Part shown: in pieces, positions 8,797-11,700 of the stretch
How positions within the stretch are numbered: position 1 is the stretch's first letter
Layout of the letters: every line of letters begins with the position of its first letter
Virus genome (UHGV): UHGV-1470964
Origin: a virus
Strand: one strand, 5' to 3'
Length of the DNA stretch: 39,922 nt
Program-made: the position numbers

Positions 8797-11700
8797 TAAG
8801 ACATTCCCGCTCTTACACATCCCAGCCCTGAAAAAGGGCATCAAATTAAACCACACCTATGGTGTATGCATTTATTTGCATACATTCAATCAATTGTTAT
8901 CTAAGGAAATACTTACATATGGTTCGTGCAAACAAACGCAACGAGGCTCTACGAATCGAGAGTGCGTTGCTTAACAAAATCGCAATGCTTGGAACTGAGA
9001 AGACAGCGGAAGCTGTGGGCGTTGATAAGTCGCAGATCAGCAGGTGGAAGAGGGATTGGATTCCAAAGTTCTCAATGCTGCTTGCTGTTCTTGAATGGGG
9101 TGTCGTTGACGACGACATGGCTCGATTGGCACGACAAGTTGCTTCGATTCTCACCAATAAAAAACGCCCGGCGGCAACCGAGCGTTCTGAACAAATCCAG
9201 ATGGATTTTTAACTACTTTCTATGGAGTTAATTATGGCAAAAAAACCTACACCAGACCAGGTAAAAAAGATTCGTTCCGGCATTACCAAGAAAATACGGT
9301 TTGAGGTTTTCAAGCGCGATGGCTTCAAATGCCAGTACTGTGGGAGTTCTGCGCCAGACGTCATCCTTCATGTCGACCATATCAACCCAGTTAGCAAGGG
9401 TGGCGATAACGACATGATGAACCTTATTACTTCTTGCGATAGTTGTAATGGCGGGAAAAGAGACAAACTGCTCAGCGATAATTCAATAATGGAAAAGCAA
9501 AGGCAGCAACTCCAGGAACTTAATACCAAGCGAGAGCAACTGGAGATGATGATCAAGTGGCGAGATGGTCTTAAGAGCCTGAAAGACGATGTTGTTGATA
9601 TTGTCGCTACCAAAATTGACGACTGCATTGCGCCATTTACTGTTAATGACAATGGGCGAAAATCTATCAAGAGATGGCTTCGAATATATAAGCTTGAAGA
9701 AATACTCGATGCGATTGAGATTGCTGCAGACAAAAAACTCACCCAAGAAATAACCCATGAGCTTACTGGTGAATTCTTTGAGTACATCCCTCGCATAGCA
9801 GCGACAAAAAGAAAACCGCCAAAAGAACAAAGGATTCTATACATCAGAGGAATCCTTAAAAACCGCATATATATCAATCAAAACCATGTAATGAGTTATC
9901 TCAAGGCATGGCTTTCATACGACTTAGATCTCGATGAACTTACTGAGTTTGCGAAAACAGTACCTAACTGGACAACGTTCAAGGAGTGGGTATCTGAACG
10001 CATTCGTGAAGCTCAGGAAGAACTCCCGTACTAAAGGTGGACAAAATGGCACGTTCAAGAAATATCAAACCAGGCTTTTTCACCAATGATGAATTAGCTG
10101 AGTGTTCTCCATATGCCCGTCTCCTTTTTGCCGGGTTATGGACTATTGCTGACAAAGAAGGGCGGTTGGATGATCGCCCAAAGAAAATTAAAGCAATGGT
10201 ACTGCCTTTCGATGATGTGGACTGCAATGATCTGCTTCAGCAGCTTCACAGTCACAAATTCATCAACCGATATCAGGTAAATGGCGGCTCATATATCCAA
10301 ATCAATAACTGGAAAAAGCACCAGAACCCTCACTGCAAAGAAGCAGCCAGTGAGATACCAGAACCAGTAGAGAACAATAACAGCACCATGCAAGTACAGT
10401 GCAAGGACGATAAAGAGGAAGAGAAGGAGGATGCCGAATCACTACAAGTCATTGAAAACAATGAAGTACCAGAAAAGCACCATGCAAGTACAGTGCAAGA
10501 ACCAGTAGAGAACAGTTTAAATCCTGCTGATTCCCTTAACCTGATTCCTGATTCCCTTAACCTGATTCCTGATTCCCTTTCTAACACCCAAGCCGCTGAC
10601 GCGACTTGTGAAGGGGGTGTGGCTGATGTCCATAAAATTTCAAGTCGCTATGCATTCGAAGGAAATATCGTTCGGTTAAACCACAAGGACTACGAAGCAT
10701 GGAAGCGCCTGTATCCGAACATTGACCTGAATTACGAACTGGAAAGGCTGGATATCGAATTTAGCCATGAGAAGCCAAAGAACTGGTTTATCACTGCCAG
10801 CCAGAAACTCAGCTACCAGAACAAGCAGGCGTTATCCAGACCGGTACGCAAGGTTGCTAATGGACTTAAGGCTGAAAACTTTGCCACCAAAGATTACGGA
10901 CAAACTGAAATGCCTTCATGGGCGCAGGAGTGAACATGACGCTGGATGAAAAGATCTCCCAACTGGAGAAAAAACTTGCAGAATTGAGTTCTCCGCCAAT
11001 TGCTATCGAGCATACATCTGTAGAAATTGGCACTGGCATCTGTGAAAAACATGGTGAGTTTGAGCAGCGTAACCGTTACTCGACTGGGCCAATTAAGTTT
11101 GCCTCAAGACCTAGCGAATGCCCGGAATGCATGAGAGATAAGCTTATTCGGCTACAGGCAGAGAAGATTAAAATCGACGAGGAATCACGTAAGCGCAATG
11201 TCGAGTTTCTGTTGAATAATCTTGATATTCCTGAACGATTCAAGGGTTGCACACTACAGAACTACGAGCCAGTCAACGACGATGCAAAGAGAGTGCTCAG
11301 GGTGTGTCAGGCGTACGCCAGCAAATGGCCTGAGAGGTTACAGAAAGGCGGTGGGCTGGTTATGTGTGGAAAGCCTGGTACTGGAAAGAATCATCTTGCA
11401 CTGGCTATCGCCCGGCACGCAATTACGGAACATCAAAGCTCAGCTATTTTCACAACGGCGCTGAAAATTGCCAGAGAATATAAATCAACATGGTCGAAAA
11501 ACTCCACCCGCACAGAGGATGAAGTGATCCGACAGTTCACTAAACCTGACCTGCTAATTATCGATGAGGTTGGTGTGCAGTTTGGAAGCGAGGCGGAAAA
11601 GATGATCATGTTCGAAATCATCAACACCCGCTACGAGCGCATGAAGCCAACAATCCTGATTAGCAACCAGAGCAAAGATGAACTGTCTGCATTCATTGGT

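Follow-up and report, generated by a model that had tools for sequence, protein, structure and literature searches.

The 39,922-nt stretch of the virus genome UHGV-1470964 analyzed here (the window) comprises the early-right region of a lambdoid Escherichia coli phage or prophage, in which a replication initiator gene (10046-10933, plus strand) carries a block of direct repeats at 10360-10579. Our analysis suggests that this block is a cis-acting DNA element, most likely the phage replication origin (with a probability of about 75%), located in the part of the gene that encodes a predicted disordered linker. We confirmed that the repeats occur far beyond chance inside the initiator open reading frame (ORF). 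They are under selection at the DNA level, their in-gene position and phasing are conserved, their sequence co-varies with the initiator subfamily, and their copy number varies between relatives. The initial annotation had considered an iteron origin inside this gene plausible, and both the conservation of the DNA in homologues and the co-variation support that proposal, with origin function inferred from these sequence comparisons.

Two classes of direct repeats in the initiator gene

The first class, identified by Tandem Repeats Finder and by octamer counts, is an array on the plus strand of five copies of the octamer CTGATTCC, the candidate iterons. The copies start at 10527, 10541, 10548, 10562, and 10569, with spacings of 14, 7, 14, and 7 bp, and the last one ends at 10576. 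Tandem Repeats Finder reported the array as CTGATTCCCTTAACCTGATTC (period 21, 2.5 copies, 100% matches, 10527-10579) and also with a 7-bp sub-period (CCTGATT, 5.3 copies). The 21-bp repeat previously placed at 10522-10580 in about 2.5 copies is hence real but has slightly narrower bounds, and the underlying word is one of 7/8 bp: each 21-bp unit consists of three 7-bp slots (CCTGATT CCTGATT CCCTTAA), and what recurs is the octamer. CTGATTCC was found six times in the 39.9-kb window, compared with 1.43 +/- 1.08 times in shuffled sequences, and none of 100 shuffles reached six. The sixth occurrence is an isolated copy on the plus strand at 39747-39754.

The second class is an 11-bp repeat, with 11 units in the window, all within the initiator gene and arranged in two plus-strand arrays, at 10360-10414 (AGAACCAGTAG AGAACAATAAC AGCACCATGCA AGTACAGTGCA AGGACGATAAA) and at 10465-10530 (AGTACCAGAAA AGCACCATGCA AGTACAGTGCA AGAACCAGTAG AGAACAGTTTA AATCCTGCTGA). 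The latter runs in register straight into the first octamer. Each array holds one copy of the 24-mer AGCACCATGCAAGTACAGTGCAAG, which occurs exactly twice (10382-10405 and 10476-10499) and has no third match in the window even with 3 mismatches (0 expected); a 17-mer, AGAACCAGTAGAGAACA, recurs at ~10360 and 10498. The recurrence of the 24-mer had been noted before, at 10383 and 10484, the second position being 8 nt off. The 24-mer is not, however, a standalone element but two units of the 11-bp repeat and part of the periodic arrays. Over the 66 nt upstream of the octamers, the base autocorrelation in the window is 0.55, 0.57, and 0.55 at lags 11, 22, and 33. Between the two arrays lies a purine-rich spacer (10415-10464, plus strand, AT skew +0.55) that is not conserved in homologues; the 40-mer starting at 10437 within it has the lowest stability in the repeat region (dG -47.0, 98.6th percentile of the window, AT ~0.65). 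As in iteron arrays generally, at least three direct repeats, helically phased, lie in cis to the cognate initiator gene. An unrelated 21-bp tandem repeat is present at 26896-26950 (GCAGATTGCCGATAAAGATAA, 2.6 copies, 85% matches).

The repeats are conserved in homologous initiator genes

A blastn search of phage genomes uncovered arrays 98-100% identical to that of the window in Vibrio, Acinetobacter, and Pseudomonas phages, in each case ~400 nt into a gene that follows cro/cII-type genes and precedes an ATPase/loader gene. The Vibrio, Pseudomonas, and Acinetobacter proteins are only 32-38% identical overall, the likeness being in the N-terminal ~100 residues and in the peptide encoded by the array. 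The 22-mer CTGATTCCCTTAACCTGATTCC was present in at least 120 IMG/VR contigs. Among the matches listed, all 124 occurrences (123 loci plus the window) were in one frame inside an ORF and 121 of these ORFs encoded the N-terminal domain, the other three being cut by the end of the locus.

To avoid circularity, we then sampled homologues by protein only. A profile of the N-terminal domain retrieved 80 loci from one-genome-per-species contigs (GC 0.36-0.67). These span Enterobacterales, Beta- and Gammaproteobacteria, several Firmicute families, Acidobacteriota, and Actinomycetota, and include Planctomycete, Omnitrophota, and Saccharibacteria metagenome-assembled genomes, whose taxon labels may be imprecise. 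The non-redundant subset used below consists of 59 genes from several phyla (GC 0.37-0.67). The exact octamer was found at least twice in 54 of the 59 and at least three times in 43; the copies cluster 375-660 nt into the gene and are nearly absent from the rest of the 6-kb loci and from the minus strand. Absence of the repeats from homologous genes with a conserved protein sequence would have spoken against the initial annotation. The opposite was observed, as the repeats are identical in nucleotide sequence at 32-38% protein identity and distant subfamilies have another word at the same place.

The 11-bp periodicity is conserved as well. In the homologues, base autocorrelation over the 66 nt upstream of the first octamer was 0.50, 0.47, and 0.48 at lags 11, 22, and 33, against a background of ~0.25 elsewhere and in flanking coding regions, and lag 11 or 22 was the autocorrelation peak in 47 of 56 loci. 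Stacking the units in register from the first octamer gave AGCACCrkrCA as the consensus and AGCCC... as a minor class. Conservation extends to period and register, and is weaker for the sequence of the unit than for the octamer. Many units approximate GCAC-n-GTGC, and those of actinophages contain TCGCGA or CAGCTG; the dyad symmetry of the 11-mers is weak and suggestive at most (mean z 1.6 against an imperfect null model). In a meta-profile of 54 loci, the sole consistent compositional feature was a switch of the coding strand from purine-rich to pyrimidine-rich at the octamers.

Copy number varies among close relatives. Salmonella and E. coli proteins more than 80% identical to that of the window are 288, 295, 302, 309, 316, or 323 aa long, and these steps of 7 aa correspond to one to six 21-bp units (encoding DSLNLIP). 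Iteron number likewise varies between relatives in lambda and Stx phages, where two extra iterons add 13 residues to O (PMC7466680).

Selection acts on the DNA word

The repeats are almost certainly DNA signals, judging from the way in which they are translated and spelt. The two 24-mers, 94 bp apart, are read in different frames, as STMQVQCK in the first copy and KHHASTVQ in the second. Within a single array the octamer likewise appears in two reading frames, giving x-D-S (nCT-GAT-TCC) or L-I-P (CTG-ATT-CCn), and its third frame, C-TGA-TTC-C, contains a stop. Out of 178 octamers in the 59 non-redundant homologues, 110 were in the x-D-S frame, 68 in the L-I-P frame, and none in the TGA frame. 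The octamer spacings in the same genes were 7 bp (50 times), 14 bp (46 times), 21 bp (15 times), and 15 bp (9 times), and a 7-bp spacing was never followed by another. Because the third octamer frame is a stop, the array alternates between 14 and 7 bp with every third 7-bp slot degenerate. For the other class the argument is simpler: 11 is not a multiple of 3, and the 11-bp repeat therefore cannot be a peptide period.

Codon choice in the 59 genes points in the same direction. Linker [APT]-D-S is spelt GAT-TCC in 110 of 127 cases (87%), where D and S usage in the remainder of these genes would predict ~7%, and linker [LF]-I-P is spelt CTG-ATT-CC in 62 of 69 cases versus ~10% expected. By comparison, 56 genes use 33 distinct 15-mers for the invariant peptide HQNPH, and 49 genes use 43 for RNIKP. 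Synonymous sites are thus saturated except in the octamer word, which excludes recent spread and demonstrates selection on the DNA.

Distant subfamilies have another word at the same place

The Mycobacterium phages Redi and Donovan and the Streptomyces phage Austintatious encode N-terminal domains 34-43% identical to that of the window, and their genes show the same layout at the same place with another word. In Redi and Donovan, 11-bp repeats (GACCCTCGCGA, 4.5 copies, and CGCGAAAGCCT, 2.5 copies) are followed by 4.4-4.5 copies of GGAACAGG. Austintatious carries six copies of GGAACAG, and the repeat finder reported no 11-bp array there. Pseudomonas phage F10 has CTGATTCT. In these phages and a broader sample of 80 viral contigs, the short repeat was always 370-470 nt into the gene and its sequence was paired with the protein subfamily: KHQNPH pairs with CTGATTCC/CTGATTC(C), EHQKVSHP with GAGCAGG (period 7), K/RHQR[VI]D[KR]P with GGAACAGG (period 8), EHQRINRP with GGAACAG(G) (period 7), and EHQKIDKP with GGATCAG. 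The repeat sequence consequently co-varies with the specificity group of the initiator, as it does in iteron origins.

The words of the other subfamilies resemble GGAATCAG, the reverse complement of CTGATTCC. There may be one family-wide word that runs in opposite directions relative to the gene in different branches, although this is a resemblance and not demonstrated homology. The G-rich orientation has no stop in any frame, and the arrays found there are perfect 7- or 8-bp tandems, which is consistent with the stop-codon explanation of the 7/14 spacing.

Each octamer also holds one GANTC, a CcrM/HinfI-type site, giving 5 sites in 47 bp (10529-10575). GANTC is under-represented in the window as a whole (120 sites versus 159 +/- 13 in shuffles), and DNA methyltransferases are encoded near the replication genes of the related phages Louie, Vibrio 24E30.2, and Donovan. 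We discarded GANTC methylation as the role of the octamers, as it cannot be extended to other subfamilies (GGAACAG types), and no obvious methyltransferase is found after ninB in the window.

The repeats separate two parts of the initiator protein

The repeats encode residues ~105-180 of the 295-aa initiator, a predicted disordered linker behind a winged helix. AlphaFold2, run with a 72-sequence alignment, gave a confident winged helix at residues ~20-90 (pLDDT, the predicted local distance difference test, >90; topology H-E-H-H-E-E), a disordered stretch at 110-208 (pLDDT <30), and then a helical C-terminal domain. The N-terminal region (residues 1-100, 10046-10345, plus strand) ends in KHQNPH. 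Foldseek against the PDB returned only winged-helix DNA binders, all weak (E >= 0.025) and none significant, including the N-terminal domain of staphylococcal pSK41 RepA (4pt7, 4pql, 5kbj; E ~0.12-0.19). The first ~150 residues match phrog_16167/12556/1408, annotated as replication initiation protein. Pfam, NCBIfam, and PDB-sequence searches with the initiator or its N-terminal domain gave no usable match, and Pfam at E <= 10 gave only a spurious Relaxase match to the initiator. The winged-helix domain is nevertheless widespread, with 22,030 representative clusters (50% identity) at E <= 1e-3, nearly always at the protein N-terminus. Most members are labelled hypothetical and others primosomal protein I, DnaT-like, RepA-like, or replication protein O.

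The C-terminal domains, by contrast, vary widely among homologues. The last 60 nt of the initiator gene (10874-10933, plus strand) are shared with lambda-O-type genes located before DnaC-like loaders and mark a sharp mosaic joint. Over query positions 838-897, and nowhere else, the gene is 95-100% identical to the 3' ends of replication protein genes of N7, mEpX1, and many E. coli prophages that are otherwise unrelated to it. In mEpX1, the gene with the matching 3' end is a Phage_rep_O gene and dnaC is next. This tail may encode a loader-docking tail or a (translational-)coupling signal. Phage HK639 carries the same N-terminal-domain-plus-repeat module with a different 3' end, followed by a gene annotated as replication protein 14. 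Because the C-termini differ and the joints are mosaic, the conserved unit is the N-terminal domain together with the repeats, the C-terminus being swapped to fit the loader.

A model for origin function and its alternatives

In the model that we favor, the predicted winged-helix domain of the initiator would bind the repeats. The CTGATTCC words, with their 21-bp (two-turn) super-period, would be the family-specific recognition words, or iterons. The 11-bp arrays, abutting the octamers in fixed register, would place a second word (core AGCAC) on one helix face and could provide either additional binding sites or phased support for an O-some-like nucleoprotein complex. Recruitment of the adjacent DnaC-like loader and, through it, of the host DnaB helicase would fall to the variable C-terminal domain and tail, a step that we propose because of the gene order and the mosaic C-terminal tail. 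The gene context (cII, an HNH gene in some loci, initiator, DnaC-like loader) is in support of this model, of which the binding partners, the site of duplex opening, and origin activity itself are predictions. A more elaborate version, which is possible but doubtful when taken as a whole, would be a bipartite origin. The phased 11-bp double-strand sites would load a winged-helix oligomer that extends onto 7/8-nt words read on one strand, with duplex opening there, and the coding overlap would force the 7-14-7-14 spacing through the third-frame stop. Phages would then have a counterpart to DnaA boxes and DnaA-trios, in an undescribed architecture of a very large unnamed family (Proteobacteria, Firmicutes, Actinobacteria, and other phyla).

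Several observations weigh against the origin reading. We looked for an adjacent AT-rich unwinding element, but no conserved flanking tract was evident in the 54-locus meta-profile or in the window, where the least stable stretch of the block (from 10437) is only moderately AT-rich. No DnaA box (TTWTNCACA) occurs in the repeat block, and the two in the window (2023 and 11041) are not above chance. A tandem word of 7-8 bp is short for a classical double-stranded iteron, the winged helix might read either repeat class, octamers or 11-mers, and an added peptide-level constraint on the octamers is possible, as their frame is constant relative to the ORF. A clear short array is missing in a few homologues, for example Mx8 p19, which has a GIY-YIG-like insert, and Ralstonia phage GP4. 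Our literature search found no mapped origin and no shown initiator-DNA contact for any family member, no experimental work on the family, and no paper on the motifs CTGATTCC with "iteron," LIPDSL, HQNPH, GGAACAGGGGAACAG, or CTGATTCCTGATTCC. A mycobacteriophage paper on a "RepA-like" protein was set aside, as it concerns another protein family.

The repeats could also be a cis-element bound by the initiator or another phage protein for something other than origin firing, such as autoregulation, copy control, a centromere-like or handcuffing site, or the target or homing site of an HNH or GIY-YIG nuclease. Tandem 11-bp direct repeats are indeed the format of the parC centromere of plasmid R1, HNH or GIY-YIG nucleases adjoin or sit inside the gene in a minority of loci, and the failure to see an AT-rich unwinding element would fit. 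This is unlikely, however, as the element accompanies the initiator N-terminal domain in widely differing phage backbones and hosts, and its place in the gene is always that of lambda ori, after the DNA-binding half and before the half that faces the loader. In addition, nucleases are found in only ~9% of loci, and no partition genes are adjacent.

We consider it very improbable that the signal is the peptide (D-S-L-N-L-I-P)n, acting as a docking or spacer motif in the linker, the identity of the DNA then being due to recent horizontal spread and to slippage. It is true that the octamers never interrupt the ORF, the peptide LIPDS is recurrent (its footprint is seen in 88 of the 142 full-length representatives among the best 150 matches), and copy number changes in whole steps of 7 aa. 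This explanation has to be set against codons that are invariant in genes whose synonymous sites are otherwise saturated, one DNA word read in two frames (and likewise the 24-mer), a period of 11 bp that is not that of a peptide, and distant subfamilies whose DNA words give unrelated peptides such as G-T-G-E-Q-G-N-R. In favor of an RNA-level element (a structure, a small RNA target, or a translational signal), gene order suggests that the array is transcribed in the early rightward operon. But no Rfam match was obtained at E <= 1, the folding energy is no better than that of shuffles (z -0.28 as RNA and -0.56 as DNA), the words are direct and not complementary repeats, and their orientation apparently flips between subfamilies, all of which makes such an element highly improbable. 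Functionless slippage-prone, low-complexity DNA in a tolerant linker, finally, would account for the disorder of the encoded region and for the unstable copy number. We give this explanation almost no credence: the word is exactly conserved across phyla and GC contents of 0.37-0.67 and is in fixed register with the 11-mers, and the comparative data already contradict it.

Comparison with known origins

An origin inside the initiator gene is the textbook arrangement of lambda, and the lambda ori in gene O (lambdoid and Stx phages) is similar to the candidate origin described here in several respects. The origin occupies a central position in the initiator gene, repeat binding falls to the N-terminal part of the protein (a prediction here) and its C-terminal part faces the loader encoded next, and the gene is located after cII and before the loader. 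When tested against the structure prediction, the repeats were found, as in lambda, to lie between the two parts of the protein: they encode the linker that joins the winged helix (1-100) to the helical C-terminal domain. The initiator is not lambda O-like, however, as already stated in the initial annotation, and has no match to Phage_rep_O (PF04492). In addition, lambda iterons are dyad-symmetric sites of ~18-19 bp followed by a strongly AT-rich tract, whereas in the window the 7/8-bp words are direct repeats with a super-period of 21 bp, 11-bp arrays are also present, and a clear AT-rich tract is missing.

RepA_N initiators (pSK41, pAD1 type) have a conserved N-terminal winged helix, a host-specific C-terminal domain, and origin repeats in the middle of the rep gene. 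The predicted architecture of the initiator gene of the window resembles this outline, the fold matches being weak and those of a generic winged helix. It differs in having no RepA_N Pfam match, no Rep protein among the matches of a profile search of PDB sequences, and another repeat sequence and layout. The initiator/repeat system belongs to neither the lambda O/ori family nor RepA_N and would work like both in outline. A precedent for octamers as iterons is found in phage P4, where the winged-helix domain of the alpha protein reads the octamer TGTTCACC at ori/crr, and in SaPI Rep, which has hexamer iterons; origin words of P4 and SaPI are 6-8 bp long and repeated several times. These two systems, which we compared by description only, differ in having a primase-helicase or helicase fusion as initiator and an origin that is not part of the sequence encoding the recognition domain. 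By analogy only, bipartite chromosomal origins, in which DnaA boxes are followed by DnaA-trios, also have double-strand sites abutting, in register, very short tandem repeats, but the protein is another one and the period is 3 nt and not 7/8 nt. The combination of 7/8-bp words, a two-turn super-period, and abutting phased 11-bp arrays is distinct, and we found no description of it in the literature.

If the block is an origin, the lambda solution of placing it within the initiator gene would also be used by a different and far larger initiator family, which, for all its 22,030 clusters, has no Pfam model and no solved relative. From Vibrio to prophages of Firmicutes and Acidobacteria, the DNA word of this family does not change by a single letter. 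It would provide a candidate origin for many temperate phages, including the cultured E. coli phages Louie, Dewey, and HK639, and an annotation signature for phage origins, namely, a winged-helix domain followed by an 11-bp array and then a 7/8-bp array. The array is also a natural example of dual coding, with an octamer in two frames and a forbidden third frame that shapes the array, and the unit of N-terminal domain plus putative origin, which is found joined to interchangeable C-terminal domains, could be used as a portable origin module.

Gene context of the initiator

In the window, cI (7848-8480, minus strand) is followed by a cro-like and a cII-like gene and then by an HNH endonuclease gene (9234-10034, plus strand; domain and PHROG matches) directly 5' of the initiator gene. 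The latter matches phrog_17247 and is 99% identical to the gene of the cultured phages Louie and Dewey, annotated as replication initiation protein in Louie; it was found in 18 of 5,426 complete E. coli genomes. The public records of Louie and HK639 contain no annotated origin. We assigned the start to the ATG at 10046 (MARSRNIKP...) and not to the GTG at 10037 of the ORF list, because homologues and a ribosome-binding-site-like AGGTGG point there. Directly 3' of the initiator gene is a DnaC-like helicase loader gene (10936-11781, plus strand; IstB_IS21 and Bac_DnaA ATPase domains, phrog_50), followed by a Ren/MarR-like gene. A promoter scan of 9900-11100 found no sigma-70-like site. Four terminator-like matches were obtained, including a weak GCAC..GTGC hairpin on the minus strand within each 24-mer, and we judged those at the 24-mers to be incidental.

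The upstream HNH protein has a C-terminal domain of ~170 aa that corresponds to phrog_16986, to which no function is assigned, and could be a homing endonuclease or a functional partner of the replication module. The same two-domain protein is encoded directly 5' of the initiator in two Firmicute loci, one labelled Desulfotomaculum and one labelled Bacillota. Four further homologues carry an HNH domain within the initiator itself, after HQNPH and before the repeats, and GIY-YIG-type nucleases lie next to or within the gene in E. coli OW1E2, Gordonia phage Sahara, and Mx8 p19.

A small plasmid carrying the initiator gene alone would have pointed directly to replicon function, but none was found in the plasmid database, where the matches to the initiator were circles of phage size, large replicons, or a frameshifted linear assembly fragment of 6.2 kb. 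The last, recorded as a linear "plasmid" of E. coli 0H26 (NZ_CP081787.1), is a piece of the early region of the same phage, in which frameshifts fuse the 3' end of the HNH gene to the initiator, and it looks like an assembly artefact and not a mini-replicon.

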